IMG/VR virus record: IMGVR_UViG_3300004369_000011
Location: 8,081 to 72,080 of that record
Source: a virus
Length of the DNA stretch: 64,000 nt
Direction: 5' to 3' (one strand)
The notes beneath the pieces were generated by a model that was not told where the DNA came from, did not search any database, and saw nothing but the letters and a program-made list of their open reading frames with translations. How positions within the stretch are numbered: the stretch's first letter is position 1; each line of letters begins with the position of its first letter. Below are positions 2,506-62,091 of this stretch, one piece after another. The translations under genes were made by a program, and so were the position numbers.

Positions 2506-3126
2506 ATGTCCCAGTTGTCTACACAAGAACTGGAGCAAATCCAGAGCTATCTAGCGCAACAGGGTGTCGTATTTCAACCTACGACAACAGACGCTACTAA
2601 GAGAGAGGTAATATACGCTGCAGTTAATCAGATAACCAGGAACCCTGCACAGGTTTTTGGTTATAAATTAGATGATTATAACTTTAGTCGTGTTGCATAT
2701 CACTTGGGTTACAACATAGCAACTGTGCCCGCTGGGGACTACGCTAGGTTACTAGAAGCTTGTAGTAGCGTTCCGAGTGAGTTTTATTACGATAAAATTG
2801 TTCAACAAACAGAGCGTTGTGAAGATGCAGAGCGTCTTACAGAGCTTGCCACGGGTAGGGCTACCAGTCGTCAAGAAACCATTCTTGGGGACGTGTCACG
2901 TTCTATTAATATTCAAGACAAACGAGAAACAGCTCGCATTTGGCGAGAGAACTATCTGTACGAGTGTGATCGATTAGCACATATGCTTTATGTGCCTAAT
3001 TATCGCGACCCCGTGGCCGCTCGGTACCGCTTTGAGAGATCTGGAGGTGAGTTCATACAAGCAATTCCTGGTCCGCCTGATGTATCACGATCCGATCGAC
3101 TGTATTTCTATGCGAATTGGCGCTAA
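2506..3126 (+). CDS. Hypothetical virion protein, possibly head-tail adaptor
   Basis: 206-aa ORF downstream of the capsid genes. Function inferred from position only. Confidence 0.5.
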   Translation: MSQLSTQELEQIQSYLAQQGVVFQPTTTDATKREVIYAAVNQITRNPAQVFGYKLDDYNFSRVAYHLGYNIATVPAGDYARLLEACSSVPSEFYYDKIVQQTERCEDAERLTELATGRATSRQETILGDVSRSINIQDKRETARIWRENYLYECDRLAHMLYVPNYRDPVAARYRFERSGGEFIQAIPGPPDVSRSDRLYFYANWR

Positions 3127-3157
3127 ACTCGGTGTAGGAAAATAGTTATTTACAGCC

Positions 3158-4756
3158 GTGTCGCCTAAAGCTGATCTCTTACGCGGAATTCTGGGTGCTG
3201 TTGAGCAGGGCGGTGACGTCTTAATGAATGTGCTGAGGGGTCTTCCTCGGCAAGACGCACAAGCTGTACGTCAAGTTTTGCAACAAGCTACCCCTAGCTC
3301 AGCTTCTGCCCGTCAGCTTTCCCTACCTCTTCGTGAGTCTGCTGGTTCTCGTACCCTGGCTCCTACCGCCACGCGGAGCGGTCGAGTAACTCCTGCAGAT
3401 ACTTCCGTAGGCGGGCGGATGTATAACCCCAGTTCGGCTGCTAGTCCGCGCAATATGGAAACTGTTCGTCTTTCGCAGCAACCTCGCGCAGTTGATACTT
3501 TTAATCCCCTTACTCCCACTCCGCGTGGGCAGATGTCAATCGACGCGGCTCCCGTTCCCGCTTTTGGTGAAGGATTTAAATTCGGCCCTGCCCCTACAAA
3601 CGCAGTTGTGCCTCTGAGTCCTCGCGCTGTGGAATTGGCTCAGGCCGATCCCGGTACTTTTAATTCGATTCGACAAATTGCCACTGACGCTGAGAATTAC
3701 TATGGCATTCGTCAAGGAGGCCTGGTAAATGCTCTAGTCGAACCCGGCGGTACAGATGTTTTGCGCTATTTAGATGCGGGTGATGATCTGGCCTCTGCTG
3801 TGAGCAAAGCAAGAGGAGGTGCTCTTGCACCTACGGGTTCGGCAGATCTTATGACCCCTGGCGTAGATGTTAATGATTTAGGGTCTGTTGCTGGGCAAAG
3901 GCAGGCTATGCGAAATAGTGCTGCTGGAGTTCAAATGGGTGATTTAAGTCGAATGCTTGACCCTAAGATGCTGGCTCTTATGGGGGGCAGCGCTGCTGCA
4001 GGTCTTGCTTTAGGAAATATAGGGAATATTGCTTCTTCCTTTAACGAAGGAGGCGGTGCTCCCGGCGCAGGCGAAACTCCTCTTCCTCAAGAGTTTCCTC
4101 AAGCTCCCGTTTTATTTCGAGACAATAGTGGGACCCCCCTAGGTGAGGAGTCCTCAGCTTACGAACCTCCTGCATACACTCGTTCTACTGGAGATCCAAC
4201 GCAACCGGCTCCAGTAGTTACCCGTGGCGATGAGCGCTCCAGTGCGCGTCGTCAAGCTCTTGCTCAGTATGCCCCCACGGAAGCTGCGATGGACAGGGCC
4301 TTAGAACCAAAAGACCCCAGTCAATATCGCAGTATTGAAGATTACTACAAAGCTAGGCAGGCTTACTCAAGCGCTCCCACTAAGCGTCAAGAGTTGGTTC
4401 AAGCCGCTCGGCAAATGGAACAAGAGCAAGCAATGCAAGACAATTTGGCTTCCTGGGCAGATGCAAATCCCCAGCTCATGTATGAGTTACAACGGCGGCA
4501 AATGATTAATCCCGCTGCTAACCAGCAAAGCGGGGATTCTGTAACCACAAGCCGCGTGGTCTCTCCTATGGGCTCGGACAACACAGCTAACGCCGTGGGT
4601 AATTCAATCGCTGCAGGAGAAACTGCAACTCAACCTAGTCAAGGTGCGTTTGAAATGATGGATGCTACTCGGCCTATGGAGCAACCTGAGTTACAACGCG
4701 TACAAGATTTTATCTCTCGTATGGCACCACGCAGTCGTGCTTACGGCGGTTATTGA
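3158..4756 (+). CDS. Large low-complexity protein, possible internal virion/ejection protein
   Basis: 532 aa, A/P/Q/G-rich, no Cys, in the late module. Confidence 0.55.
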   Translation: MSPKADLLRGILGAVEQGGDVLMNVLRGLPRQDAQAVRQVLQQATPSSASARQLSLPLRESAGSRTLAPTATRSGRVTPADTSVGGRMYNPSSAASPRNMETVRLSQQPRAVDTFNPLTPTPRGQMSIDAAPVPAFGEGFKFGPAPTNAVVPLSPRAVELAQADPGTFNSIRQIATDAENYYGIRQGGLVNALVEPGGTDVLRYLDAGDDLASAVSKARGGALAPTGSADLMTPGVDVNDLGSVAGQRQAMRNSAAGVQMGDLSRMLDPKMLALMGGSAAAGLALGNIGNIASSFNEGGGAPGAGETPLPQEFPQAPVLFRDNSGTPLGEESSAYEPPAYTRSTGDPTQPAPVVTRGDERSSARRQALAQYAPTEAAMDRALEPKDPSQYRSIEDYYKARQAYSSAPTKRQELVQAARQMEQEQAMQDNLASWADANPQLMYELQRRQMINPAANQQSGDSVTTSRVVSPMGSDNTANAVGNSIAAGETATQPSQGAFEMMDATRPMEQPELQRVQDFISRMAPRSRAYGGY

Positions 4757-4784
4757 TAGTAAACTAGTTTATCGGAACAAACGT

Positions 4785-5309
4785 ATGTCTTACAGCGGTT
4801 TTCCTACGGGATTTTCTTTAGAGTCCGTCATTGGAAACATTGATCCCTATGTCTCTTCGCTGGACCCCAAGGGAGCAATGGGTGTAGGGGAGTTTGCTCC
4901 TATGGACGACGGGTTCTTTAGTGGACCCTATTCCACTGCTTATGATCCGGAAGGAGGTAGGGGCAACTCATTTATTCGAGACCTCGGAAATTTTGCCGAG
5001 GAAATAACTCCAATTTTAGGAGGAACCGACGATATCATTAGGGCCATTAAAGGGATGCCCCGACGGGCAAACCGTTTTGCCGGTGAAGGCTTAGGAGGCT
5101 ATTTTGATCGTCAACGTGGAATGAGGGAGATAGCCCAAGAAGCTTTTAGGCCTTCACGCCCTGTTCAATCAGAAGCAGAAAATATTTCACAAGATTTGCA
5201 AATTGCTCTTCCGGAAAGAATGGCTGAAATTTTTCGTAGAGGTCTGGGTTTAGGCACAGAGACGAAACAAGGGCCTACTCGCTTACCGGTGATTCCCTTC
5301 CGCGATTGA
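4785..5309 (+). CDS. Hypothetical late protein (RFAGE motif)
   Basis: Likely start is ATG 4785 (MSYSGF), downstream of a TAAACT box at ~4760. Confidence 0.65.
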   Translation: MSYSGFPTGFSLESVIGNIDPYVSSLDPKGAMGVGEFAPMDDGFFSGPYSTAYDPEGGRGNSFIRDLGNFAEEITPILGGTDDIIRAIKGMPRRANRFAGEGLGGYFDRQRGMREIAQEAFRPSRPVQSEAENISQDLQIALPERMAEIFRRGLGLGTETKQGPTRLPVIPFRD

Positions 5310-5403
5310 AGCTCAGGAGCCAGTAATTTCCCGCGTGGTTTGCAGTAGAATTTCTTTAATTCCCTAGCAGGCTAAAACCGAAAGGTTATAAAGCCAAGAC
5401 GTA

Positions 5404-8898: not shown

Positions 8899-9030
8899 GA
8901 AATACAGGTGTTGAATAAACACAACGTAAGAAGATTAGCAGGGATTTGCGTTAAATGACTGCGTGAGTTTTTCTTACGGCGTTTCTTTAGGTTTGGGTTT
9001 AGTATCATAAGACAAGAGTCAAGGCACCCC

Positions 9031-9282
9031 GTGGCGAAAATTCGTATCGCTGGTGAGGTTTTTTCAGGGTATAACAAACCTCGGCCAGACTCTGATGGGG
9101 GTAAAAAATCTGCTGTTGCTGCTAAAGAGGGAGATACTGTGCGTTTAGTGCGCTTTGGAGACCCCAACATGACCATTAAAAAACATATTCCTGAGCGTCG
9201 CGCAAATTTTCGAGCTAGGCATAATTGTGACAACCCCGGTAGCAAGCTCAAAGCTCGTTATTGGAGTTGTAAGGCCTGGTAG
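9031..9282 (+). CDS. Conserved small basic phage protein (RFGDPNM...FRARHNC...YWSC family)
   Basis: Motif familiar from cyanophage/aquatic phage hypotheticals. N-terminal RIAGEVF. Confidence 0.75.
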   Translation: MAKIRIAGEVFSGYNKPRPDSDGGKKSAVAAKEGDTVRLVRFGDPNMTIKKHIPERRANFRARHNCDNPGSKLKARYWSCKAW

Positions 9283-11096: not shown

Positions 11097-11398
11097 TGAG
11101 TAAGCTCGGACGTTCCAATGTCGATAGACGTATTGGCCGTCAACTTGGAAAACGTCTGCGTCATGTAGAAAAAGAGCCCCGTCAGTTTCGACTAGCGGGA
11201 GCTTTGTTTAACACTGGGCCTGCAGAGGTAGCCCAGAAACGAGCACGCCAAGCAAAAAGAAAAGCACAACAAATTAATCCTGTTGGTTTAGGTTTTGCTT
11301 CGCGTGATACTTACGGACCAGACGATAATTGGGATGTTGTTAAATCACTCAATAGTATATCCTACCAAGATTACTATACAGCTCAGCAAACTTACTAA
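11096..11398 (+). CDS. Small basic hypothetical protein (RLAGALF motif)
   Basis: TGATG overlap with the previous gene. Confidence 0.6.
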   Translation: MSKLGRSNVDRRIGRQLGKRLRHVEKEPRQFRLAGALFNTGPAEVAQKRARQAKRKAQQINPVGLGFASRDTYGPDDNWDVVKSLNSISYQDYYTAQQTY

Positions 11399-11927
11399 CT
11401 TGTTTTTCTTGCTCTGTGAGTGATGGTAAATACAAAATAAATCCAAAAACTTTTGCGTGTTTTAAAGGAGTTAATTCGGGTTCGTCTATTAGTAATTTTG
11501 GACGTTCTTTTAAGATACACATAGGAAAATCCAATCCAAGTTTTTGCGTAACAATTAATGCAACCTCTGAAGAGGTTAAAAAAATAATTGCTTGATCAAA
11601 TTCTTTTCTTAGCCATTTGTGGTAGGCCAATTCAAGCCAAACACGTTGACTAGATTTACGAAATTGCCTGATTTTAGTAAACAACCTTGTATCTTTAGGT
11701 TGTTCACTTTTTAAACTAAAATCTCTAGGTGGGTACAAATAAATGTTTTTAGCTTTCCATGTCTGAGTTAAGCCATTATTTTGCCAAGTAAAGTACCTAG
11801 TTGCTTGAACTACTTGGTTAGCGTGCTCGCTTGAGGCCGGATCTAGATCAATTTCTCCACCAAAAAATGCAGCTGTCGTGGCTACAACTTCAGGGGGAGA
11901 TACAAAGTCTCTAGAAGATAAGACCAT
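11349..11927 (-). CDS. Phage N6-adenine DNA methyltransferase-like protein with degenerate catalytic motif
   Basis: DF.SPPEV...IDLDPASS..AN..V.A.RYFT...NGL.Q.W is typical, but NPPY is replaced by YPPR. Confidence 0.7.
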   Translation of the reverse strand: MVLSSRDFVSPPEVVATTAAFFGGEIDLDPASSEHANQVVQATRYFTWQNNGLTQTWKAKNIYLYPPRDFSLKSEQPKDTRLFTKIRQFRKSSQRVWLELAYHKWLRKEFDQAIIFLTSSEVALIVTQKLGLDFPMCILKERPKLLIDEPELTPLKHAKVFGFILYLPSLTEQEKQVSKFAELYSNLGRIYY

Positions 11928-12330
11928 TAGCCATTTCGTCGATACGCTGATTAACCTCTTTCGGATCCAAAATGTGCACAGCAATACCCGTCGACTGAAC
12001 CATCGCTACAAGCGCTAAATCTGATTTACTTTCTTTTTCGACAAGTTTAATAATTTTTTGAAGGCTGTCGGCTAGTTCTGTATTCAATTGTTCTTGAGCA
12101 ATAGAAATATCATCTTCTATGTCAGAAACTGTAACGTAACGGCTTTTTTCAGGTTCTTCAGGATTAAACGCAAGAATTCCTTTGCCTTTTATTTTTTTGT
12201 TTTCAAAGTACAAACGAGTAATGTCAGACAAAATAGTTCGCAAAACACCCGCAGCCATTCGATTTTCAATTTCGCTGCCTTTAAACAGCTGTTTAGCTAG
12301 TGCAGCCGTTTTTTTACTGAAATTAAACAT
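11911..12330 (-). CDS. Hypothetical protein
   Basis: 139-aa ORF overlapping its neighbours in a - strand operon. Confidence 0.65.
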   Translation of the reverse strand: MFNFSKKTAALAKQLFKGSEIENRMAAGVLRTILSDITRLYFENKKIKGKGILAFNPEEPEKSRYVTVSDIEDDISIAQEQLNTELADSLQKIIKLVEKESKSDLALVAMVQSTGIAVHILDPKEVNQRIDEMANGLIF

Positions 12331-13604: not shown

Positions 13605-14260
13605 GACCTATCTAAGCACTTCACCAGAACACAATTTCCAGATCCAACAGGTTTTCTCCAAAATTGCTCGTAAACAAACCTGCGAGTACGCATGTTTTTA
13701 TCTTCTTCACTCATCCTGCAAAACCCGTGATCCGCAGGAAGATACAAGTGTTGCTCTGTATCGATACAGTTGCGATAACGCGCAAGCCAAGCTGCTAGGC
13801 GCCCTGACTTCCCTCTTGCACTCTTGTCCTCCTCCTGGCAAATCTCGCAAGCCTGCAGTCCTACGGGGAGTCGGATCCTCCTCAGGTCCTCTGCGGCGAC
13901 CAATAGGGGTGCAGAGCGCCCACAGCGGCAAACCCAGCTAGACGCCTCTGAGTGGTGAACGACGGCCCAATGACCTCTGATTTCTTGGTCCAGAACGACC
14001 CCCGTGGGTTCCGTAGGGATTTTCGGTTCGAGTAGCCCCAAGTGAATCAGGGACCTTCGGGGGTCAAATCGAGGCGGAAACAAGGATTTTAGTCGTCTTG
14101 GAGCTGAGTCTAGCGCACAGAACGCACAGAATGGGTAGCTTCCCCAACTTTGCTTAGGAATCTTTCTTTTTTTCAATAACGAGACTGACAACCGATTTTC
14201 GCTGTAGTCCCCCCTCTTTAAATAAATTCCGTATCGCAGCGCAAAAATGTTTTTTGGCAT
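13391..14260 (-). CDS. HNH homing-endonuclease-derived protein with C-terminal HTH (start uncertain)
   Basis: WVCRCG...CEIC zinc motif, RRFVYEQFW...VLVKC.DRSCINPYHL and a C-terminal HTH-like segment. Confidence 0.55.
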   Translation of the reverse strand: MPKNIFALRYGIYLKRGDYSENRLSVSLLKKRKIPKQSWGSYPFCAFCALDSAPRRLKSLFPPRFDPRRSLIHLGLLEPKIPTEPTGVVLDQEIRGHWAVVHHSEASSWVCRCGRSAPLLVAAEDLRRIRLPVGLQACEICQEEDKSARGKSGRLAAWLARYRNCIDTEQHLYLPADHGFCRMSEEDKNMRTRRFVYEQFWRKPVGSGNCVLVKCLDRSCINPYHLWVSKSPAQKVSEASRQLILRLTDKGVPSKAIQQLLLDQHSLKLSLRSVQLIRSEISKSKSSGT

Positions 14261-17200: not shown

Positions 17201-18712
17201 ATGGTTATTCGGAGACCGATAGTCTTAGTCAGTGGTGCACTTGCTGAGCTTCCATTTGGCGACAGCATTATTACCACGGCTTCAGGAGGAACCCTTGTTG
17301 CCGGAAGTGGTCTTGCCGGTGGCGGCAATACTGATTCAACTATTCGTTTAGATGTAGCTTTAGCCGCGCAACCCAGCGGTTTAATTTTTGTCGGCTCTAA
17401 TTTAAGTGTAGACGGAGCGGCAGCTCGAAAAGCTCAAGAGGCACTCGCCTCAGGTAATGATGCTTTATTAGATGCTTCTTTTGCTCTTGCGTCAGGTAAT
17501 GCCGGTCTTCTAGAGGCTAGTAAAGCTTTAGCATCGGGTAATGCAGCATTAGTTGATTCTGTCACAGCTCAAGCTTCTGGTAATGCGGCTTTATTTATTG
17601 CAAGTAGTGCTTTAGCTTCGGGCGTTAATGCACAAGAAATTGGAGTTAGTGCGCTAGCTTCAGGTAATGCGGCTATTTTTGACGCTTTCGTAGCGCTTGC
17701 TTCTGGTAACGCTGCTTTATCTTTATCTTCAACAGCTTTAGCTTCTGGTAATGCCGGATTAACTAACTCTGTTGTTGCTCTTGCTTCGGGTAATGCTGCT
17801 CTTGCCCTGTCTAGTACCGCACTTGCATCCGGAAACGCTTCTTTAACTGTTGCTGACATTGCTTTATCTTCTGGGAATGCAAGTTTAGTAGTAGCTGTTT
17901 CAGCTTTAGCGTCAGGAAACGCAGGGCTGGCAAACTCAGCTGTTGCTCTTGCTTCGGGTAACGCTTCGTTATCGGTTTCAGTCTCCGCATTAGCTTCTGG
18001 GAATGCAGCTCTTAATGTCTCAACCACAGCACTTGCTTCCGGTAATGCTGCCTTAACAGATGCAGAGGTAGCATTAGCCTCAGGTAACGCCGCTATTGTT
18101 TTATCTAATACTGCGTTAGCCTCTGGCCAGATAGCTCTTGATATAGCTAACACAGCCTTAGCTTCTGGTCTAGCAGCCGATAATAAAGCTAACACTGCTT
18201 TAGCTTCAGGTAATGCTGGAATTATCATAGCTTTAGCTGCACTTGCCTCCGGTAACGCATCTCTTAGTACGGCTGCTCAAGCACTTGCTTCCGGTAACGC
18301 TGCCTTAATAGGTGCAGAAGTAGCATTAGCCTCGGGTAATGCGGGCATTTTTCTCGCTGTCGATGCACTTGCCTCCGGAAATAGTGCTTTAACACTCGGA
18401 GCAGTAGCACTTGCTTCTGGTAACGCAGGTTTAAATCTCGCATCAGCTGCTCTTGCCTCCGGTAACTCAGCTTTAGTTTTAGCTAATACTGCTTTATCGT
18501 CTGGAAATGCCGCTCTTAGTGTCGGCAATGTAGCTCTTGCCTCGGGCAACGCTTCTTTACTTGTTTCAACCAGTGCTCTAGCCTCTGGTAATGCCGCATT
18601 GTTCGTGGCTCCTCAAGCTCAAGCATCTGGAAACGCCGCCTTAGCGCTTTACTTTGCTAATCCTGGTTTATCTGAAGGGGATGCGATTGGTTTAATAATC
18701 GCTTTATCTTGA
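17201..18712 (+). CDS. Fibre protein with about 29 x 14-aa ALASGNAAL repeats
   Basis: Regular ALASGN(A/S)x period of 14 aa. C-terminus IGLIIALS. Confidence 0.7.
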   Translation: MVIRRPIVLVSGALAELPFGDSIITTASGGTLVAGSGLAGGGNTDSTIRLDVALAAQPSGLIFVGSNLSVDGAAARKAQEALASGNDALLDASFALASGNAGLLEASKALASGNAALVDSVTAQASGNAALFIASSALASGVNAQEIGVSALASGNAAIFDAFVALASGNAALSLSSTALASGNAGLTNSVVALASGNAALALSSTALASGNASLTVADIALSSGNASLVVAVSALASGNAGLANSAVALASGNASLSVSVSALASGNAALNVSTTALASGNAALTDAEVALASGNAAIVLSNTALASGQIALDIANTALASGLAADNKANTALASGNAGIIIALAALASGNASLSTAAQALASGNAALIGAEVALASGNAGIFLAVDALASGNSALTLGAVALASGNAGLNLASAALASGNSALVLANTALSSGNAALSVGNVALASGNASLLVSTSALASGNAALFVAPQAQASGNAALALYFANPGLSEGDAIGLIIALS

Positions 18713-18713
18713 T

Positions 18714-20222
18714 ATGACTTCTAGACGCGGCCTTATCTATTCCGGCGGTTTTATTAGTGAAGCGTCGGATCAAGATGTTATACCTATTGTCGGTGATTTA
18801 ATTGCCGGTAGTGGACTTGGAAATCGATTATTTTCGCTTGGGCAAAATGATTTTGTTCAAATACTTGTCTCAGCACAATCTTCAGGATTAATTTATACAC
18901 CTGAGGGTACTTTAAGTCTAGACGGATCCGATATAAATCTTTCTGAACGAGCATTTGCTTCGGGTAATGCGGCTATTGTTTTGGCTGATACCTCTGTGGC
19001 TTCCGGAGACGCCGCAAATTTTTTAAGTAAGGAAGCACTAGCTTCAGGTAATGCCGCTCTTGTAACAGCTTTTGATGCTTTTAATACTTCTCAAACGGCT
19101 GTAGCGTTAACTTTTATAGCACAAGCTTCAGGAAACGCTGCTCTTCTTTCAACTCAAGAGGCTTTAAGTTCTGGAAATTTAGCATTGAATGACACCTTTG
19201 CTGCGGTGTCTTCTGGAAATTTTGCTGTACAAGCTGCGAACACTGCGGCCCTGTCGGGGTCTCAAGCAGTATTTATTGCAGATTCTGCTCAAACTTCCGG
19301 AAATGCGGCTTTATTTGATTTAACCGCTGCTATTGCATCTGGAGCTTTTGCAGTTTTTGTTTCAAATACAGCTGTTTCAAGTGGAGTCGAAGCAGTTCTT
19401 ATTGCCTCATCCGCTTCTGCCTCCGGTGTCGAAGCAATTTTAGCTTCACAACAATCTTTACAAGCAGCTAATGCTGCTTTAATTCAAGCAAATGTTGCAT
19501 TTGCTTCTGGTAATTTAGCGGTGGAAGCTTCCGCTTTTGCCGTTGCTTCGGGCAACGCAGCTTTAAACGCTTCTTTTACAGCACAAGCCTCCGGCAACGC
19601 GGCGGTAACCAATTCAGTGCTTGCGGTAGATAAATCTACAGACGCTACGGGAAAAGCCGTATTTGTGCATATTGTTAGTGATGATGCAGTTGAGACAAGT
19701 CAAAAAGCACTAGCTTCTGGTGCTGCTGTACCGCCAATTTCTACAGCGGCAATCGCGTCTGGTCAAGCTTCTTATGCTTTTTCCTCTGCAGCACAAGCTT
19801 CCGGAAACGCAGCTTTGCTAGTTATACCTAATGCGCAAGCATCTGGTAATGTTTCTATTTTTAATTCGTTACAAGCTTTATCTTCGGGTAATGCCTCTTT
19901 ATCTGCTGTTTTTACTGCTCAACTATCGGGTAATGCAGCTTTATCTCTAGCTTCTACTGCATTTAGTTCTGGTAATTTTTCTATCGGAGCTTCCTTAACA
20001 GCGTTAGCTTCTGGTAACGAGGCAGTACTTTATTCTAGTACTGCTCAATTAAATTCCAATCAAGCTATTTCTTCTGGTTTGTACGTTACTTTATCCGGTA
20101 ATGAGGCGTTGAGCGACAGCGTGGAGGCCTTAGCTTCTGGGAACGCAGCTTTAGAGTTAATTGCGGGCAACCCTCCTATTAACGCAGATAGCATACTAGG
20201 TTTAGTATTTGCGATAAGTTGA
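18714..20222 (+). CDS. Paralogous fibre protein with degenerate 14-aa ASGN repeats
   Basis: Same length (502 aa) and architecture as 17201. C-terminus LGLVFAIS. Confidence 0.7.
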   Translation: MTSRRGLIYSGGFISEASDQDVIPIVGDLIAGSGLGNRLFSLGQNDFVQILVSAQSSGLIYTPEGTLSLDGSDINLSERAFASGNAAIVLADTSVASGDAANFLSKEALASGNAALVTAFDAFNTSQTAVALTFIAQASGNAALLSTQEALSSGNLALNDTFAAVSSGNFAVQAANTAALSGSQAVFIADSAQTSGNAALFDLTAAIASGAFAVFVSNTAVSSGVEAVLIASSASASGVEAILASQQSLQAANAALIQANVAFASGNLAVEASAFAVASGNAALNASFTAQASGNAAVTNSVLAVDKSTDATGKAVFVHIVSDDAVETSQKALASGAAVPPISTAAIASGQASYAFSSAAQASGNAALLVIPNAQASGNVSIFNSLQALSSGNASLSAVFTAQLSGNAALSLASTAFSSGNFSIGASLTALASGNEAVLYSSTAQLNSNQAISSGLYVTLSGNEALSDSVEALASGNAALELIAGNPPINADSILGLVFAIS

Positions 20223-20520: not shown

Positions 20521-21192
20521 ATGCACCCTGACATCACTAATACTCTTAATTATTGCCCAGAAGCATCTTTATCCTCGTTTATTAAGGAGTATGATGGTTA
20601 CTTTACTGATGACTTAGTTTCTCGGATACTGTCGGAGTACACCTACGACGACCCTTGTTATTGTGACTCTGGCATCAATCAAAATGGTTCTCACGATATT
20701 ACGACAAATCAGAGTATAAGGTCCTCTCGTACGTTGCTAATTTCCGCACCAGAGGTAAAAGCAAAAAACCCTTCTGTGCGAGAGAGTATCGATGCTGAAA
20801 TCTATAGTATTTTAAATAATGTTATTACTGAATATGTTAGTGACGTGATGCCTTTGGCCCGAGTTAGTGCCGACTCAGGCTATGAGCTGACCTCTTACGC
20901 AAAAGGCTCTTTTTTCAGAGAACATATCGATACGTTCTATCCTTCAGAATCTGCTCATTTATCTAGTATGGATATGGTTCTTGCAAGAGCCGCAGCTAGT
21001 AGGCAACTTTCTATTTCTATCCAATTAAACGAAGAATATGAGGGAGGTGAGTTAACTTTTTACGATAAAAAACACACAGTTACGAAGAAAAAAGGATTAA
21101 TAACTGTTTTTCCGTCGAACAACTTGTTTCCTCATCAAGTAACCCCCGTGGAAGCAGGTATTCGTTATTCAATTGTCACTTGGTTCTCCTGA
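20521..21192 (+). CDS. 2OG-Fe(II) oxygenase, prolyl-4-hydroxylase-like
   Basis: Y..G.FF.EHID...RQLSISIQLNEEYEGGEL.F...FPSN..FPH.VTPV..G.RYSIVTW. Confidence 0.9.
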   Translation: MHPDITNTLNYCPEASLSSFIKEYDGYFTDDLVSRILSEYTYDDPCYCDSGINQNGSHDITTNQSIRSSRTLLISAPEVKAKNPSVRESIDAEIYSILNNVITEYVSDVMPLARVSADSGYELTSYAKGSFFREHIDTFYPSESAHLSSMDMVLARAAASRQLSISIQLNEEYEGGELTFYDKKHTVTKKKGLITVFPSNNLFPHQVTPVEAGIRYSIVTWFS

Positions 21193-25787: not shown

Positions 25788-25822
25788 CGTGGTAGTATAG
25801 CATCACTAAGTTTATTACATTC

Positions 25823-26416: not shown

Positions 26417-26469
26417 TTGAGACAGGTTGTTTATTTGAGTTAAACTTGTTTAAAGTTGCACACTTTTAG

Positions 26470-37569: not shown

Positions 37570-37583
37570 AAGTAGGAACCAGA

Positions 37584-38757: not shown

Positions 38758-38806
38758 TGTTTTAGGCTATCTGTTCTCAATATACACGCTCTTACTTTTT
38801 TGCATG

Positions 38807-38831
38807 AAAAAGGGCCCTGTCAGCGGGCCCT
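38807..38831 (-). terminator. Rho-independent terminator
   Basis: AGGGCCC...GGGCCCT stem with an A-run, downstream of the 38849 gene. Confidence 0.65.
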
Positions 38832-38848
38832 GCTTTGTTAGTTAAAAA

Positions 38849-39820: not shown

Positions 39821-39854
39821 CGGAATAGGTGTGCCTTAATTAGAGTATAAAGCA

Positions 39855-40121
39855 TCAGCGAGCCTTGTACCCACTTGGTTTAGCACCAGCAAATAGCCTT
39901 GGGGCTTGTGTTTCGTGTTTTTGAAGTGGTTTAAAGCCCCCAAAAGGAGCCACTGCCCCTGCTTCTCCTACGGAAGAAAATTCTTGTTCTTTTGTTGTAT
40001 TTCCAATTCTCTTCGTAAAGTCTTTAAATTCAGGAAAGTAATCGACGAGGATAGATCGATCCGGACTGTCGTCCATTGGACCGGGGCGATTAAAAACGTC
40101 TCCCGCAAAGCGCCGCGTCAT
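39855..40121 (-). CDS. Small hypothetical protein (RFAGDVF N-terminus)
   Basis: 88-aa ORF. Confidence 0.6.
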   Translation of the reverse strand: MTRRFAGDVFNRPGPMDDSPDRSILVDYFPEFKDFTKRIGNTTKEQEFSSVGEAGAVAPFGGFKPLQKHETQAPRLFAGAKPSGYKAR

Positions 40122-40137
40122 CTTCCGTAGGTTTTTT

Positions 40138-40653
40138 TTAGTATAACGTTTCCTTTGTTTCTACAAACTGGCGCATCAGGTTAAATCCTGGACCAATTAC
40201 TCCTCTCAAGGTGCGCATTGTAGTCTTAGCCTCCTCGTGGCACTTAAAAAGCTTTGCCTTGTCCTTAGAAGGAGAATACTTTACTAGTTGTTTTTTTTCG
40301 TAATTCAAGCAGTCAGAAACGTATTCGTTTCCGTGCAGGATCAGCCAAACCTCTTTAAAGCGTAGAAGAGGCATGGCTTCGACTTCTGCCAGCGTGTATA
40401 GCCGATCTTGCCACGTTACCGTGTTTTTGCTTTTCTTGCTACTTTTTTGTACATTTGGTGAACTCTTCTGAATTGAAACACCTAAATCCTTACGCAGTTT
40501 TCGAGCCGCGTTTGCCGCTTGCAAAGCGTTGGGAAAGGTCTCCGTGGTTATATGGAAGCAAATCTGTGTTTGCACGCACCCTACGTAACCTTTATCTGTT
40601 TTCGCGGTGAAGATATCTTTGGTGTTTGTTGCGGGGATGTCTAGGATTTCCAT
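40138..40653 (-). CDS. Hypothetical protein
   Basis: GGAG RBS before MEILD, downstream of the polymerase. Confidence 0.6.
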   Translation of the reverse strand: MEILDIPATNTKDIFTAKTDKGYVGCVQTQICFHITTETFPNALQAANAARKLRKDLGVSIQKSSPNVQKSSKKSKNTVTWQDRLYTLAEVEAMPLLRFKEVWLILHGNEYVSDCLNYEKKQLVKYSPSKDKAKLFKCHEEAKTTMRTLRGVIGPGFNLMRQFVETKETLY

Positions 40654-40692
40654 TTGTGCTCCAAGCTGACTGGCACTATAGCGCAAGTGTTT

Positions 40693-42588: not shown

Positions 42589-42606
42589 GTAATGATTTTA
42601 GAAGAC

Positions 42607-42633
42607 AAAAAAAGAGGCGTCCCGTAGGACGCC
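42607..42633 (-). terminator. Rho-independent terminator (UACG loop)
   Basis: GGCGTCC-CGTA-GGACGCC preceded by A7. Confidence 0.8.
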
Positions 42634-42645
42634 CCTAGTGTAACG

Positions 42646-43425
42646 TCAAGCTCCGCGCTTGTTCCAATAGCCAATAATGTAGTCTTCCATATCGTCCCAC
42701 ATGCGGCACACCTGCATCCCTGTCTCGGTCAGGGTCACGTGGTACACCTTCCGACGGAGGAACTGAGAGTGAGGAATTAGTTCCTTGTCCTCGGGTCCAA
42801 ATGCGATATGCTCCTCCATTACTGCAAGCCCAGAGCTGACGAGGAAGGAGAGCCCGTCACGAAGGGAGGTGTACATGGGCGAGCCGTGGTAGCAGTCAGA
42901 ACGAGCTACGCCTGAGGCCGCGCTGCAGGGCTCCATAAAGCCATCGATTTTTCGGCGGAATCCTCGGAAACAATCGTACTTGTTATCGAGACGAGCATCG
43001 TCTAGCATGTTAACTACCGCAACCGCAGTTTCTTTAAGAGTTACCTTATCGCCTGTTGCGCACATAAATAAGAGTGCGGCAGCTCCTGCGGTTTTTAGAT
43101 TCTGGTTAGTAAGGACTATCTTGAATGTTTCATCCGCTGTAAGTTGGTTAACTGGTTGCTCCCCAATCCTCGAATGACCAGTTTTGGTGTAAGCCCGGCG
43201 CGGCTTGGCAGGCCTATAGATGGCCAGTTTGGCGGCCAAGGTTGCTAATTGCGGATTACGCTGTTCGACGCTGAGATTAAACAGTTTTTTAGCGTCGAAC
43301 AATTTGTGATCGAAATGCTTAGTGATGTCTACCGAAATTGTAGGATTCTTTTCCGAAACGGAAAACAAAGCAGAAACTTCGTTTTTTTCAAGGGGGAGGT
43401 CCCCAAGGGTGAATTCGAGATTCAT
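42646..43425 (-). CDS. Hypothetical protein, possibly wHTH
   Basis: 259-aa ORF ending LTETG, a wing-like pattern. Confidence 0.6.
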   Translation of the reverse strand: MNLEFTLGDLPLEKNEVSALFSVSEKNPTISVDITKHFDHKLFDAKKLFNLSVEQRNPQLATLAAKLAIYRPAKPRRAYTKTGHSRIGEQPVNQLTADETFKIVLTNQNLKTAGAAALLFMCATGDKVTLKETAVAVVNMLDDARLDNKYDCFRGFRRKIDGFMEPCSAASGVARSDCYHGSPMYTSLRDGLSFLVSSGLAVMEEHIAFGPEDKELIPHSQFLRRKVYHVTLTETGMQVCRMWDDMEDYIIGYWNKRGA

Positions 43426-43520
43426 GTCAGTTTGGCTGATAAAGACATGTAGACCTTACTAAGAATGCACTCATATTGGAAGGGGGACCTGGGATTTCTT
43501 TAGGTTTGTAAGGATTATTG

Positions 43521-43751
43521 TTAGGGTACAGCTTTCCATTTCAATACGCCGTTCACTACTCCGTAACAAACTTGTAGTGAGTTAGATGCATTATTGTATC
43601 GAACTGCGCCGATAAACGCTTGCTCCATTAGTTTGTCCGCTTGTTCATCTGTTAGGTCTATAGGATCATTCCATTGTGTTACATAAGATCTTGTTATTTT
43701 GTTTACATCTTCACTGTCCTGTTGTTGTCTGAGTAAAGTTTTCTTTTCCAT
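43521..43751 (-). CDS. Hypothetical protein
   Basis: 76-aa ORF following the VWA gene. Confidence 0.55.
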   Translation of the reverse strand: MEKKTLLRQQQDSEDVNKITRSYVTQWNDPIDLTDEQADKLMEQAFIGAVRYNNASNSLQVCYGVVNGVLKWKAVP

Positions 43752-43756
43752 AAAAG

Positions 43757-45304
43757 CTACAACAATATTTTCTGAAAAACTGTAGAGGATTCGGGATCGT
43801 TTTGGGGGTCCACTACGTACACTTCATCGCTAAATTGTTGGAGTACATCAGCCTCCATTCCTATACAGAAAGCGTAAAAATTAATACTTTGCTCTTCTTT
43901 AAAGTTATTAAGACGTCGTACAAAGGCATCAGGTACATTTGCTTGTCCGTCAGTAATTAATAGTATGTCTGCTTTTGGATCTATGTGAGCCTTTGTCATA
44001 GCATGCTCTAATACCGCAGTGAACGAAGTTCCTCCGGCAGTTCGCCACGTAAGAATAAAATCCAGTAGTTCTTTGTTATTTTTACGGTTGCTATCAAGCA
44101 CCAAGCTGTTACAAATTCTGGCGTCAAATAAATGAATTTGAATTTCTCGCTTTTGCTTAAGACACTCGTCTGCGACAACAAAAGCTATTGCTTTCGACCA
44201 TAATTCAGATTCTCCAGTCATTGAGCCAGAAATGTCGATGTACATTACTACGGGTCCTCTATCAACGTCTTTAGATTTTGCTTCATAATCTTTAGTCAAC
44301 AAAGTTTTTTGTGAATACTTAAGAGCAAACAGGGCACGTCCTTCCTGCGTGGCCGCCAACGCAATTTCAATAGGGAATGCTTTAGTTACTTCGTCAGAAA
44401 ACTTAGCGCCAACTATATCGCTATAGTTCGTTTGAGTTTTTTTAGCTCGTCTTCTGTCATTCCAAGCTTTACGTAAGCCACCTAAACGAGAGGCTAGTTT
44501 CTGCAGTTTTTTATTATGACTTAGTTTTTTAGCTAAAGCTTGTTTTTCTTGCAAATCTCCGCTGTGATGCCCCTGGCCTGTTTCTGTTCCAGCAAGAGCT
44601 GACATAGCATTTTCCAGTTCGTCAGCTTCTTTCTTAGCCCGCTCAACCGCCTCCGCTACCTTAGGTTGTAGTTTATTTCTGGCTTCGTTCAAGACTTGTT
44701 CCACGGCTTGACTCAATTGCTTTCCTTGCTGCCTTAGTTCGGTAGCCTCAAGGTCTTTTCCTTGTTTTTTAGCTTGAATGAAAGCGTCACGTAACTCGTT
44801 TAACTTCTCAGCACTATGCGCCAAAAGCTCTGCGGGCAGTTGACCCAATTCAATTTGCTCTTCTATAATTTCACTTAATTCGTTTAATAAACAAACGGCA
44901 TTGTTGCCGCTATTAAATTGATTGCCTATACAGTGGGTTGCAAGAGTCGGCCACGCGGGAGAATTACAGAGATCATTTAACAGGCCAATCCAAAAAGCAG
45001 ATTCAGGTTTATATCCAGAAGGAAACGGGGGATCAAATCCTTCTTGTTTATTACGAAAATATTCTTCAGCCTCCGTCAAGGAGACTAGAGGAGTTACGTT
45101 GCCGCCCTGATAAAGACATTCAAAAATTTCTTTACCAAATCGAGATAGTTGTCGAATATCATATCGATCAATTAAGTAGTTGACCGTAGGTTTGGTGTCT
45201 CGTACAAAGTCTTCCCACAAATAGTCTGCTAGCGCGGAGACCGCAACTACTATGGGCGCTGCATCAAGCAGGCGAATGTATTCGTGCAGGGTTTTGTTGT
45301 TCAT
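43757..45304 (-). CDS. VWA domain protein (ViaA/CoxE-like)
   Basis: GP....IDISGSM.G (MIDAS DxSxS), GGTSF and ILLITDG. Start probably MNNKTL. Confidence 0.9.
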   Translation of the reverse strand: MNNKTLHEYIRLLDAAPIVVAVSALADYLWEDFVRDTKPTVNYLIDRYDIRQLSRFGKEIFECLYQGGNVTPLVSLTEAEEYFRNKQEGFDPPFPSGYKPESAFWIGLLNDLCNSPAWPTLATHCIGNQFNSGNNAVCLLNELSEIIEEQIELGQLPAELLAHSAEKLNELRDAFIQAKKQGKDLEATELRQQGKQLSQAVEQVLNEARNKLQPKVAEAVERAKKEADELENAMSALAGTETGQGHHSGDLQEKQALAKKLSHNKKLQKLASRLGGLRKAWNDRRRAKKTQTNYSDIVGAKFSDEVTKAFPIEIALAATQEGRALFALKYSQKTLLTKDYEAKSKDVDRGPVVMYIDISGSMTGESELWSKAIAFVVADECLKQKREIQIHLFDARICNSLVLDSNRKNNKELLDFILTWRTAGGTSFTAVLEHAMTKAHIDPKADILLITDGQANVPDAFVRRLNNFKEEQSINFYAFCIGMEADVLQQFSDEVYVVDPQNDPESSTVFQKILL

Positions 45305-45308
45305 GGAT

Positions 45309-46493
45309 TTACTTAGTGAACTCTCCAATGGTTTTAGCGATTCGTTGTGAATTGATATTTAACTCTTGGCACAATTTTGTAGCATCTTGTCGCGCTTTCA
45401 GAGTTACACGATAGTGTTCTCCCTCAAGAACTCCGTTTGCTTTTGCTTCTAGCACTTGTAAATCGTGATGAATCTTACGTAACTTACTAACCACGTGGTT
45501 TAAATCTTCTAGATTCTTGGCTTCTTTTGATTGAATCGCATGAAACTCACTGAGGACACCGGCTTGAGCCCGTTTAATGTCCTTTAACAACCTTTCAGCT
45601 GTAGGGATTACTTGATCCAATACCTCCCGAATTACAGATACATCGTCAGGAGTCTGATAAACAATATGAATCAGGGAGTCGTGAAGATGTTCTGGATAAA
45701 GTTTATCGTCGCCCTGAACAAGAGCCCAGCCCCGCATGAACTTAAGAATCTGTACACGCCGTCGATCACTGATTGTTATGCCCCGCGTGACTAGCATCTC
45801 AAACACCTGAGCAAACGAGTCAAGAAACTCATCACTTGGAGCAATGAGAGCAGCCTCTTCTTGTAACTTGCCTAAATCGGCATAACTTAGATCTGATTCA
45901 ACAGCAGGTCGCTGTTCGATACCCAGAGCCCATGTGTCTAGAAGTCTTTTTGAAATAGGAGCTTTGAGAAGATCTACTGTCGGTCTAAACAGAAAGCGAT
46001 CGCAAAAAGCTTGGAGAGCTTCTTCTTGGGGAAAGCTGTTAGTCGCCGCAACGATAGATTGAATAGGTGTTGTCAACACCTCTTTGCCGTTATTAAACGT
46101 ACGTTCGTTTAGGATCGTAAGCAGAGAATTTAGTACAGCGGAGGAGCCGCGAAAAAGCTCATCTAGGAAAGCTATGTTGGCAGTAGGAAGATAACCCTGT
46201 ACATCCCGACTGTATTCGTCTTTAAGTAACTTACTTACAGCGACAGGACCGAACAACTCTGATGGATCTGTGGTGGGCGAAAGCAAATAACCGAAGAAGC
46301 TAGAACCTGTAAATCCGTTGGAAACGGCGCGAACTAATTCAGATTTACCTGTGCCGGGTAGACCAAACAAGAACGCATTTTGCTTGGTAATAACTGCAGC
46401 CAGTAAGCCGTCGATGACGGGTGCTCGCTCTAAGAAAGCATTGTTAAGTGAGCCTCTAAATTTTTGAAGAGAGGTAAAAAGTGTGTCGTTCAT
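45309..46493 (-). CDS. MoxR-family AAA+ ATPase (RavA-like)
   Basis: G.PGTGKS, T.PSELFGP, FLDE.F, LNSLL..LNER.F.NG, ATN..P and DRF..R. Confidence 0.92.
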   Translation of the reverse strand: MNDTLFTSLQKFRGSLNNAFLERAPVIDGLLAAVITKQNAFLFGLPGTGKSELVRAVSNGFTGSSFFGYLLSPTTDPSELFGPVAVSKLLKDEYSRDVQGYLPTANIAFLDELFRGSSAVLNSLLTILNERTFNNGKEVLTTPIQSIVAATNSFPQEEALQAFCDRFLFRPTVDLLKAPISKRLLDTWALGIEQRPAVESDLSYADLGKLQEEAALIAPSDEFLDSFAQVFEMLVTRGITISDRRRVQILKFMRGWALVQGDDKLYPEHLHDSLIHIVYQTPDDVSVIREVLDQVIPTAERLLKDIKRAQAGVLSEFHAIQSKEAKNLEDLNHVVSKLRKIHHDLQVLEAKANGVLEGEHYRVTLKARQDATKLCQELNINSQRIAKTIGEFTK

Positions 46494-47833: not shown

Positions 47834-48259
47834 TTACTTAAGGCGAGAGAAAGCAGTGGTGATTTTGTCAGTGAGCAAGTCGATAGCTCCCATTACTGAA
47901 AGCTGTTCAACTAGTTTCTTCCGCTCGATGCGGGCAACCTTTAGGTCACGTTCGAGTTTTTCGATACGAGCGTTTACCTTGTCGAGTTTTGCGTGCCCCG
48001 TGGGAGCCTTCGTCACGCGCACGATGATGTTCGTTCCGAATTCAGGGAACTTGAACAAGGAATCGGGACCTTGAAAGGTCTCTAGTGAAAGACCAGAAGC
48101 GTCAGCTTGCTCTAGGTCGTTTGTGAGGTTGGAACGAGCCGCCTCGTAGGGAGTCCCAAAAGATTCATTTAGAGCCGTTAGGGCTTGATCGCACTCGTCG
48201 AACAGTTCAGCGGTCCTCCGACCTCGTTCAACTAAATGAGAGATGGTTGGTTTAGGCAT
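47834..48259 (-). CDS. Hypothetical protein, first gene of the MoxR operon
   Basis: Start probably MPKPTI, downstream of a sigma70 promoter. Confidence 0.65.
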   Translation of the reverse strand: MPKPTISHLVERGRRTAELFDECDQALTALNESFGTPYEAARSNLTNDLEQADASGLSLETFQGPDSLFKFPEFGTNIIVRVTKAPTGHAKLDKVNARIEKLERDLKVARIERKKLVEQLSVMGAIDLLTDKITTAFSRLK

Positions 48260-55145: not shown

Positions 55146-55358
55146 ATGACTGACCATGCACTTGTTGATAAGTTAAAAACTGCGGGGGTGTGTTGTGCTG
55201 AGTGCGGGGACAGGTACGGAACCCCCCGTGGAAAGTATTCGTCTTGGTGGATGGGTGTTTGCAATGTGTGCGATGCAGAGGCACCCGTCACCGAGGTACG
55301 TAATTTTCGCTATTTGCATCGTGGGCTTGTTGAACTTGTTGAAAATGCCAAGATCTAG
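55146..55358 (+). CDS. Small zinc-ribbon protein
   Basis: CAECG...CNVC. GAGG RBS. Confidence 0.65.
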   Translation: MTDHALVDKLKTAGVCCAECGDRYGTPRGKYSSWWMGVCNVCDAEAPVTEVRNFRYLHRGLVELVENAKI

Positions 55359-60188: not shown

Positions 60189-60890
60189 CTATTTAACTTG
60201 ACAGACGAGTTGCCAACCAGAGAATACAGCGAGTTCCATAGAGGCAAAAGCGTTTAGGGCGCCGTCGACTCCCCGTTGTACGTCCGGGTGGCCGTAATCG
60301 TCAAAGATTACCAGACCACCAGATTTGACCATGGGTACGTAAAGAGTTGTGTCACGTGCTACAGAGGTCGGATCGTGGGCGCCATCGATGTAGAGGACGT
60401 CAATCCAGGGACCCGAGGGAAAACGACGGTTTAGTTCAGGGAATACGTCCCAACTGCACCCTTTGATGATTTCAATTTTGGCTGCGTTATCCGATTTAGC
60501 AATGTTCCCCCTAGCTGTCAGCTCAATTCGGTCTAATTCAGGGTAGTTTTCCGGTTTTGCATGGTGCTCTTCGCTTCCTGTAAAGGGATCTATCGAAATC
60601 AAACGGGAATAAGGGTGGGAAAGATAAAAATCAGACCAAAAACAAGAGGATGCCCCCTCGTAGATGCCTATTTCAACTATCTGTCGGCATTCGTCCGGAA
60701 TTAACGCCAGTTTTTGAGCCTCCGGGTGGGTGTTTAACGCCATATCTGTATTCAATAGGGTGTCATACCACCCTTGGTTAAAGGTGTATCGCTCATCTAG
60801 CTTCTTTTTACCTTGTACAACAACTTTGGCCTGTGTCCCCTCTTTGAGTTGGGACATCAGTTCTTTAAATTTAGGAGCCGAGGTGGTCAT
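60189..60890 (-). CDS. Class I SAM-dependent methyltransferase (Methyltransf_24-like)
   Basis: VEIG.YEG.S, SIDPF, D.LYIDG.H and K.GG..IFDDY. Confidence 0.9.
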   Translation of the reverse strand: MTTSAPKFKELMSQLKEGTQAKVVVQGKKKLDERYTFNQGWYDTLLNTDMALNTHPEAQKLALIPDECRQIVEIGIYEGASSCFWSDFYLSHPYSRLISIDPFTGSEEHHAKPENYPELDRIELTARGNIAKSDNAAKIEIIKGCSWDVFPELNRRFPSGPWIDVLYIDGAHDPTSVARDTTLYVPMVKSGGLVIFDDYGHPDVQRGVDGALNAFASMELAVFSGWQLVCQVK

Positions 60891-60976
60891 GAAGGGTATT
60901 ACGCTCACACTATGGTACCAGTCTTCGGGGAGCTTGCACGCTTACAGGAGATGCGCTATGCTTGTCATGTCACTAG

Positions 60977-61306: not shown

Positions 61307-61367
61307 AAGGCTTTCTTGCTCTTTGAGCGTATTTGCCTTACGTTGCCCTTAAGACGTTTCTTTTGTT

Positions 61368-61577
61368 ATGCCCCGCCCTCTAGTGTTCTATCTTTGCCCA
61401 GAGTGCTCCAAGACACTTAGTCTTAGTGGTTCTCGCCTAAAAGAATGGGTTAAGCGTAAGCGCAAGAAACCCAACATTGCAGGTCCCTACTGCGACTATC
61501 GCTGCTCCAGTGCTGCTAATGTGCGGCTGGCTGCGGAAGCCAAACGATTTCGTCTGGAGTCGTTAGACTCCAACTAA
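61368..61577 (+). CDS. Small zinc-finger protein
   Basis: CPEC...YC...C. Confidence 0.6.
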   Translation: MPRPLVFYLCPECSKTLSLSGSRLKEWVKRKRKKPNIAGPYCDYRCSSAANVRLAAEAKRFRLESLDSN

Positions 61578-61591
61578 GTCAGATTGTGCAC

Positions 61592-61673
61592 GCTGTAGTG
61601 CTGGAACGGTATACAGAACGCACTTAAAATGCGTCGGGCTTTGCCCTTATGGGTTCGAATCCCATCTGCAGCA
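61592..61673 (+). tRNA. trnL: tRNA-Leu (anticodon TAA), CCA not encoded
   Basis: Acceptor GCTGTAG/CTGCAGC, anticodon arm ACGCA-CTTAAAA-TGCGT, variable arm GGGC-TTT-GCCC, T arm ATGGG-TTCGAAT-CCCAT. Confidence 0.95.
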
Positions 61674-61689
61674 TTTCTTTACTTAATTA

Positions 61690-62091
61690 ATGGCTTTTGT
61701 TTCTCGGGTTGAAAGCGCTCCTCGTTGCCCCAAATGTGCAAAAGGACGAATGCTTGTTATTGAAATTCGAAAGACTACCACCGCTGTGCGTCGACGTCGC
61801 CAGTGCTCTGAGTGTGAGTACCGCATGACCAGCTATGAAATTGAACAGCCTATTTTCGAAGATTTTAAAAAAGCAAAAGAGTCTATGACAAAGATTCTAA
61901 AGACACTTCAGTTAACTCCCTCGTCAAACCCCGTGGTAGAACATCTCCCCGCAGATATCGAGACTGCCGGGGAAGTACCCTGTTACGACTGTCTTAACTT
62001 TCGCAAACTGTACGGGTGCAGTTTTGATTTCCCTGAGGCTTTTACAGAAGAGGCTAAGGGATGTATTCACTTTGATTCGATAAAGACGTAG
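61690..62091 (+). CDS. NrdR-like zinc-ribbon protein
   Basis: CPKC......V.E.R......RRRR.C..C..R.T.YE, plus a second Cys cluster. Confidence 0.75.
   Translation: MAFVSRVESAPRCPKCAKGRMLVIEIRKTTTAVRRRRQCSECEYRMTSYEIEQPIFEDFKKAKESMTKILKTLQLTPSSNPVVEHLPADIETAGEVPCYDCLNFRKLYGCSFDFPEAFTEEAKGCIHFDSIKT

Follow-up and report, generated by a model that had tools for sequence, protein, structure and literature searches.

Polar words that recur through a whole genome are known from bacterial chromosomes, with Chi and the FtsK-orienting polar sequences (KOPS) as examples, and from the nick motifs of a few phages. Here we analyse such a word in a virus. The stretch of DNA under study, called the window in what follows, comprises 64,000 bases (8081–72080) of the 72,080-base viral contig IMGVR_UViG_3300004369_000011 of IMG/VR, which is linear and about 89% complete according to CheckV. 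The word is the octamer CCCCGTGG, which a preliminary description, made from the letters alone, had noticed on one strand of the window.

The systems closest to it are the template sites of archaeo-eukaryotic primase (AEP)-type enzymes. For the ORF904 primase of pRN1, the published work reports a requirement for a template GTG plus one 3′ base, with the primer starting at the first base 5′ of the GTG and the site itself cryptic (PMC2034472). For the PrimPol of NrS-1, the published work names GTGG and GTGA as the two most efficient sites, places the beginning of synthesis at the first upstream base, and adds an 8-mer, TTTGGTTA, that the enzyme also recognises (PMC8718748). The phage studied here resembles both in having a predicted AEP primase, in its case fused to a superfamily 3 (SF3) helicase, and its word ends in GTGG, a tetramer that ranks among the two best sites of NrS-1 and amounts to GTG with the one 3′ base needed by pRN1. 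However, known AEP PrimPol sites are 3–4 bases long and were defined in vitro, whereas here seven of eight positions are constrained, GTGA is unused and the word is known from sequence. We know of no genome-wide, strand-polar and evenly spaced footprint on record for AEP PrimPol sites. The gp4 primase of T7, a TOPRIM-type enzyme, uses the pentamers GGGTC, TGGTC and GTGTC. These would resemble the word as phage lagging-strand primer starts that combine cryptic with copied bases, and they differ from it in occurring about every 250 bases on both strands, with neither polarity (161:159) nor regularity.

Likenesses of another kind come from the nick motifs of tf/LUZ24-like, T5/BF23 and phiKMV-like phages, which, like the word here, are short, asymmetric and kept to one strand through both gene orientations. 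The motif of tf also has a similar copy number (14) to that of CCCCGTGG but is reported to be unevenly spaced and to occupy similar positions in relatives, unlike the word here. Chi and KOPS are likewise polar words, conserved in density and orientation and not in position, and lie on the T-rich strand, which is the leading-strand sequence; they are, however, words of host chromosomes read by host enzymes, whereas the word described below is evenly spaced and appears to follow the replication module of a phage.

Counts, spacing and degenerate form of the word

An exact string count found CCCCGTGG 12 times on the + strand of the window and never on the − strand (12:0; all counts below are given as +:−), and 14:0 over the whole contig. 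None of 100 dinucleotide shuffles of the window reached 12 copies (mean 0.86, maximum 5), and Markov models of order 0–3 predict 0.5–1.0 per strand, orders above 3 being inflated by sub-words of the octamer itself. Synonymous codons were also shuffled gene by gene, so that all proteins and the codon usage of every gene stayed the same; 500 such randomizations gave a mean of 1.72 copies on the + strand (maximum 6) and 0.46 on the − strand. The preliminary description had placed all 12 copies correctly and none on the − strand. It had also put the chance expectation at about 0.5 per strand; shuffles, Markov and codon models give 0.5–1.7. The strand count and Markov comparison that it had suggested have now been run: the two strands are unlike, an excess remains under the models, and the signal is kept in relatives. 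The copies are, in addition, more evenly placed than random points. In 200,000 trials with 14 points on the contig, a largest gap of at most 7,321 bases has P = 6.5e-5, and a coefficient of variation (CV) of the spacing as low as the observed 0.43 has P = 0.001.

Along the window, the + strand copies lie at 3009–3016 (in a + gene, in the frame D-P-V-A), 9027–9034 and 14000–14007 (each in a − gene), 21144–21151 (in a + gene), 25674–25681 (in the − gene of a JmjC/cupin protein), 31204–31211 (in the + gene for ThyX), 34599–34606 (within the primase-helicase gene, on the − strand), 35169–35176 (in the − exonuclease gene), 42490–42497 (in the ExoI motif D-Y-E-T-T-G-L of the family A DNA polymerase, where the codons are ACC ACG GGG), 47996–48003 (in a − gene), 55224–55231 (in a small + open reading frame, ORF) and 61929–61936 (in the + gene of an NrdR-like zinc ribbon protein). 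Over the whole contig all 14 copies fall inside ORFs, 6 in + genes and 8 in − genes, and they are read in several frames, as Pro-Val, Pro-Arg-Gly, Thr-Gly or His-Gly. Sites in genes of both directions had been noted before, though as an even six and six; the ORF map assigns 5 of the 12 window sites to + genes and 7 to − genes. No longer consensus extends into the flanks, in line with the earlier remark that these are not conserved. The shorter CCCGTGG occurs 17 times on the + strand and 3 times on the − strand of the window; the five + copies outside the octamer that had been reported, at 4221, 16671, 20370, 35797 and 37924, are real, and − strand copies at 2849, 6352 and 27513 had been missed. 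The earlier statement that neither codon usage nor transcription direction accounts for the word is borne out by the synonymous shuffles and by the sites in both gene directions; codon usage or peptide repeats as its cause are ruled out by these shuffles and by the equal split of the degenerate sites, given below, over + and − genes. The polar word is a selected, directional signal at the level of DNA that depends neither on coding nor on the direction of transcription.

The octamer is the strongest and dominant variant of a degenerate polar word, C-N-S-C-G-T-G-G. Five larger relatives could be oriented like this genome by 28–69 shared genes each, at a mean protein identity of 51–59%, and in them CCCCGTGG itself counts 6:3, 4:0, 0:1, 7:0 and 3:0. 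Their dominant polar words are siblings of it: CCGCGTGG (11:1), CTGCGTGG (7:0), CAGCGTGG (10:2) and CGGCGTGG (9:1). The degenerate word was defined by comparing the flanks of CGTGG on the + and − strands of the six genomes, which differ in having C at position 1 (245 vs 76) and S at position 3. Over the whole contig CNSCGTGG counts 41:12, where synonymous-codon shuffles lead to an expectation of 8.9 and 4.4, and its sites are found 20 times in + genes and 20 times in − genes. The window holds 45 matches, 35 on the + strand and 10 on the − strand, against a shuffle mean of 8.74 for both strands together. Beside the 12 copies of the octamer, the + strand matches of the window are 23 further copies within 623–59359, starting at 623, 1517, 3521, 4552, 4591, 5331, 6178, 7794, 12539, 14786, 20117, 24195, 28516, 29842, 36129, 40540, 44345, 47049, 49947, 53612, 56723, 57477 and 59352. 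The regular spacing seen earlier is thus real, but the interval of 5–7 kb attached to it belongs to the dominant variant, since the degenerate word recurs about every 1.7 kb in this phage.

In the six genomes CNSCGTGG counts 41:12, 35:4, 36:9, 27:4, 22:3 and 41:12, where 3–8 per strand are expected, and its spacing is more regular than random in four of them (CV 0.65–0.74, P = 0.002–0.027) and not in the two most fragmentary. The same strand is enriched, 5–9-fold, in every relative set that we examined, these sets not being phylogenetically independent of one another. In 61 polymerase-bearing loci (816 kb) the count is 492:96, with about 53 and 42 expected, and the enrichment is similar across every GC class from 36 to 52%. 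A further 70 primase-bearing loci (752 kb) give 373:126, with 61 of them biased in the same way, 3 in the opposite way and 6 tied. Five more genomes, 92–100% complete, show 59:15, 50:15, 42:8, 51:11 and 17:6, each on the strand predicted from its gene order, and in the one near-complete relative for which all sites were listed there is no switch of polarity over 81.6 kb. The lineage is very large: the viral collection contains more than 588 capsid relatives, and the N-terminal domain of the primase has 327 carriers there; the AEP-domain relatives compared are the best 80 of these 327, all at least 55% identical, and those compared in the capsid scan are all at least 92% identical. The phage itself occurs in 20 runs, which come from 12 studies. 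A limited literature search (phage primase-site strand bias; S-EIVl) found neither polar words nor nicks for this lineage, and did not find the word in print.

The two halves of the word behave differently. In 62 sequences (1.08 Mb) CNSC followed by GTGG counts 642:125, as against 73:74 for CNSC with GTGA and 137:110 for CNSC with GTG[CT], so that GTGG is the sole tetramer to carry polarity after CNSC; the polarity also needs the C before it, as CNS[not C]GTGG is balanced (281:277). The 3′ half is therefore invariant and the 5′ half variable. The positions of the sites turn over, with 12 of about 90 homologous positions in five relatives keeping a site. An exception is the invariant ExoI peptide E-T-T-G-L of the polymerase: 23 of 51 relatives have precisely the codons ACC-ACG-GGG here and so carry the word, amid synonymous sites that vary, and the remaining 28 have codons ending in A or T. 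Selection acts on the density and spacing of the word and not on its place.

Replication module and primase-helicase

The genes of the − strand include a replication block with a family A DNA polymerase that carries a 3′-5′ exonuclease domain (40693–42588), the primase-helicase (31878–34733), an exonuclease (phrog_298; 34779–35570), a weak match to a single-stranded DNA-binding protein that is below the Pfam cut-off (37584–38228), and MoxR and VWA proteins. The genes of the + strand include those for the portal, the major head protein, a tail fibre and an endolysin. The ORF of the primase-helicase has 951 aa, with a likely start at Met 21 (window position 34673), and reads as an AEP primase, a helical domain, D5_N and an SF3 helicase; matches to D5_N and DUF5906 were found in it, and one source names the protein a 'P4 family phage/plasmid primase'.

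An alignment-based model of the full-length protein has as its top Foldseek matches the PrimPol of African swine fever virus (ASFV), the E5 and D5 proteins of monkeypox and vaccinia viruses (MPXV, VACV) and the primase-helicase of SaPI5, and the predicted fold is that of an AEP PrimPol-SF3 helicase. A model of the N-terminal 362 aa (predicted local distance difference test, pLDDT, 83) is best matched by the AEP domain of the PrimPol of cyanophage S-2L (E = 1.8e-4, probability 1.00), and the pair D81-x-D83 is invariant in 32 homologues. Residues 215–358 are modelled as a confident helical domain. The span of AEP and helical domain matches RepB′, an AEP with a helix bundle, at a probability of 0.84, and the pRN1 primase weakly, at 0.20. 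A tblastn search of 50,697 cultured phage records gave no match to the AEP half. For ASFV C962R, the closest structural match, no template preference was found in the available parts of the literature on it. Between the primase and helicase halves sits a Thr/Ser-rich, low-complexity linker, TSTSTSTSTSSS, which is encoded by a tandem run of the hexanucleotide TGTAGA (+ strand; 33489–33519) and falls in a region modelled with very low confidence. In the contig of one run, about 830 bases of the N-terminal region of the primase (33410–34243) are replaced by 775 other letters.

The only cultured phage that shares the capsid protein is Synechococcus phage S-EIVl (KJ410740), at 69% identity over 99% of the protein. 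S-EIVl lacks the bias, with CNSCGTGG at 6:9, and has a genome-wide polar word of its own, CCCTGGTG (13:1). Its replication proteins are far from those of the present phage: the polymerases are 22% identical, the helicase halves of the primases 29%, and the AEP half is barely detectable (E = 0.11). Three capsid relatives of about 70% identity show no enrichment of CNSCGTGG, and the AEP domain was not found in the cell assemblies that hold them. Because S-EIVl shares the capsid but has a diverged primase and polymerase together with a different word, the word appears to follow the replication module and not the virion module, as judged from one sister lineage and incomplete contigs.

Other phages and relatives have asymmetric words as well. 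S-EIVl has two more, CCCCTGGT (11:1) and C[CG]CTGGT (46:14), and its polar words lie on the strand opposite its polymerase and primase genes, through both gene blocks. The NrS-1 genome (AB746912) shows GGCTCTAT at 8:0 and GGCTCTA at 12:2, a capsid relative in a Bacteroidetes metagenome-assembled genome (MAG) shows GGCTCTAC at 6:0, and a 51-kb relative (G002) shows GCCGTAGCC and neighbouring words at 17:0.

Proposed primer start sites and rival readings

Of the readings considered we favour, tentatively and at a probability of roughly 40%, that CNSCGTGG marks the preferred primer start sites of the phage's AEP primase on the displaced or lagging-strand template of one-way replication. Under this proposal primers would preferentially be started at the word, used as template by the AEP primase-SF3 helicase that the phage itself encodes. 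Within it, GTGG would serve as the cryptic recognition element, read and not copied; copying would set in at the C immediately 5′ of this tetramer and yield primers with 5′-G-S-N-G. All sites would lie on the lagging-strand template of one-way copying, such as the displaced strand in rolling-circle concatemer synthesis, and selection would keep start sites at the distances of Okazaki fragments, about 1–2.3 kb when all variants are counted and, in this phage, about 5 kb for the strongest one, and avoid long gaps. In this proposal we infer three parts: the reading of the word by the primase, the point at which primers start, and the way the DNA is copied. The preliminary description had offered four functions without ranking them; lagging-strand priming is now the favoured one, and packaging or ejection and a host recombination signal have both lost ground, as discussed below.

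Primer start sites are favoured by the form of the word, whose invariant half is exactly GTGG and whose variable half, C-N-S-C, is where AEP primases would begin copying; in this it matches what is known from pRN1 and NrS-1 of how primases of the type found in the phage read their template. Selection at the DNA level, the spread of the word over the lineage, its regular spacing, the predicted AEP fold of the primase-helicase and the apparent link to the replication module count in favour of the proposal as well. In six of six genomes, moreover, third codon positions of the motif strand are T-rich for genes of either direction (strand component −0.06 to −0.13), as expected if this strand is transiently single-stranded. 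Together with the lack of a polarity switch, this fits one-way replication with the motif strand as the lagging-strand template. One complete relative has direct terminal repeats.

Several observations weigh against this proposal. GTGG alone occurs every 200–300 bases, and why a primase that reads GTG(G) should need an 8-mer is unexplained, just as there is no ready explanation for the C required four bases upstream of GTGG. NrS-1 is reported to accept GTGA, yet GTGA carries no polarity here (73:74). The identity of the second domain as a helix bundle is weakly supported by its match to pRN1 (probability 0.2). A primase footprint of this kind has no genomic precedent in T7 or NrS-1: the T7 pentamers leave no strand footprint (161:159), and in the NrS-1 genome CNSCGTGG counts 2:2, while GTGG reaches only 112:69. 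The co-variation with the replication module comes from one sister lineage and incomplete contigs, between which many other genes differ too. E. coli Chi also ends in GTGG, so that the match to this tetramer is not unique to primases. Finally, − strand copies are about twice as frequent as expected (96 vs 42 in the 61 loci and 12 vs 4.4 in this genome), an excess that also speaks somewhat against programmed nicking, although the exact octamer is confined to one strand (14:0).

Programmed nicking, in which a phage nickase would cut one strand of virion DNA at CNSCGTGG before or during packaging, has a close precedent in phage tf, for which 14 nicks are described, all on the top strand, at the 9-mer TACTRTGMC and through convergent gene blocks, with one-mismatch variants of the 9-mer also on the top strand only (PMC3517423). 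The 14 exact copies of CCCCGTGG, all on one strand, recall this arrangement. The sites of tf are, however, uneven, with 11 of 14 in the left half, and stand at similar positions in its relatives (PMC3517423), whereas those described here are even and turn over; shared positions, as in the LUZ24 group, are not what the 12 of about 90 kept sites amount to. Moreover, no HNH or other nickase was seen among about 50 proteins, a subset of the ORFs, that were scanned against Pfam or PHROGs. On this evidence we consider nicks unlikely, though the most probable of the rival readings. The readings are not all exclusive, and primer start sites could persist as nicks. A stronger version joins the two, in that an AEP primase of unusually long template specificity would set the start of every lagging-strand fragment on the displaced strand, with junctions that might remain in packaged DNA as site-specific nicks; one-strand nick motifs such as those of tf and T5 would then be connected with primase start sites. 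It is an improbable proposal as it stands.

A Chi-like signal for the RecBCD or AddAB enzymes of the host, which would protect the free end of a rolling-circle concatemer or one end of the injected DNA, seems less likely again than nicks. It would suit a polar octamer with about one copy per 5 kb that is conserved in density and not in position, and both the GTGG 3′ half and the free second position resemble the Chi words of E. coli and Haemophilus influenzae. Of 41 sampled genomes from the picocyanobacterial family to which the host of S-EIVl belongs, 37 have RecC, which shows only that a reader could exist. Even spacing is not, to our knowledge, a property of Chi, and the word is common to phages whose GC content ranges from 36 to 52%. 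In the 41 genomes of the host family of S-EIVl, CCCCGTGG is not enriched over its reversed control. CNSCGTGG stands at compositional expectation and without polarity on contigs of 260 kb (104:116) and 140 kb (73:69) of one genome of this family; it never exceeds its reversed control by more than about 2.7-fold in 151 genomes of the picocyanobacterial phylum or about 1.9-fold in 101 Bacteroidota, and the three cell assemblies with contigs of relatives show no enrichment of it. Because the word is neither enriched nor polar in the sampled candidate host genomes, a host recombination signal is weakened; in addition, S-EIVl and this lineage have different polar words, of which at most one can be a shared host Chi.

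The word of S-EIVl was followed up as a possible host word. CCCTGGTG is 10–25-fold over its reversed control in the larger genomes of the host family, but it is not strand-polar in one of them (46:55, 24:41), where the E. coli Chi word is equally abundant, and for these two reasons its abundance is best explained by CTG-GTG codon usage. In the complete contigs G036 and G026 of this family, the strand on which the few copies of CCCTGGTG prevail changes with position (for example, the last 0.5–0.8 Mb have 13 + and 2 −, after a roughly even or − biased distribution), which hints, in small counts, at a replication-linked polarity of CCCTGGTG in low-GC members of the family.

The primase-helicase might instead bind the word as duplex through its C-terminal region, so that the copies would act as dispersed, oriented loading or origin sites from which many forks run in one direction, in the manner of the alpha protein of phage P4. 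P4 alpha binds octamer iterons at ori and crr, the phage protein is of the P4/D5 primase-helicase type (D5_N, DUF5906), and helicase-loading sites would be consistent with an evenly spaced, polar word linked to the replication module. Known origins of the P4 type are, however, clusters of repeats, whereas the copies here are dispersed, the closest pairs being 39 and 570 bases apart without forming an array, and binding of CNSCGTGG by the C-terminal region is putative only; we hold this to be improbable, slightly more so than a Chi-like signal. Least probable among the named readings is a directional guide, either for a DNA translocase in the manner of KOPS or for packaging or ejection, or else a target of strand-specific DNA modification. 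A polar, genome-wide and evenly spaced word could serve in this way, and the phage encodes methyltransferase-like proteins, one with a Methyltransf_24 match (60189–60908) and one Dam-like and below the Pfam cut-off (11349–11984). No FtsK-type protein was seen among the scanned proteins, though, and DNA modification would not explain why its target should be enriched, polar or regularly spaced. Packaging and ejection are weakened because the word does not appear to follow the shared virion module, the capsid protein of S-EIVl being 69% identical and its word different. The remaining odds fall to other readers of the word, or to none of those named.

Neighbouring features and implications

Beyond the genes already described, the phage encodes ThyX, a dCTP deaminase, a 2-oxoglutarate (2OG)-Fe(II) oxygenase, a JmjC/cupin protein, a ferritin-like protein and the methyltransferase-like proteins, and the only tRNA in the window is a tRNA-Leu with the anticodon TAA (61592–61673). 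None of the genes was recognised as a terminase. Just upstream of the portal gene, at contig positions 1220–2837, two adjacent ORFs of 271 and 270 aa have the same match in relatives (67% and 56% to G001) and no PHROG match; paralogues in tandem or one split gene could account for them. A Prochlorococcus single-cell assembly, a Bacteroidetes MAG and a 1-kb contig of a Robiginitalea MAG contain capsid relatives, none of them decisive for the host.

Three other words, GGTAATGC (16:2), GCTTCTGG and TAGCTTC, recur at multiples of 42 bases at 17201–20222, in two adjacent genes (503 and 502 aa). The 42-base unit is a coding repeat of 14 residues, with peptides such as S-G-N-A, in two proteins without a family match, and GGTAATGC counts 21:0 in the closest relative, G004. 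As periodic coding repeats confined to two adjacent genes, these three were ruled out as polar words comparable to the octamer. One common variant strain of the phage is widespread, since contigs from four runs of four studies (labelled soil, aquatic, freshwater and marine) share many differences at 25600–45599. In run X20 one contig ends at 31209, an isolated case that allows no interpretation.

Taken together, a very large lineage of aquatic phages keeps a polar word at regular intervals on one strand, and the word seems to evolve in step with the replication module. If its copies are indeed primer start sites of the AEP primase, this would be the first case in which the starts of lagging-strand synthesis are hard-wired into a genome, the direction and mode of replication would be readable from sequence alone in uncultured phages, and the word would provide a defined template for studying how AEP primases choose their start sites. 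If the copies are nicks or a Chi-like signal instead, a widespread lineage with a clean and testable motif would be added to those problems.

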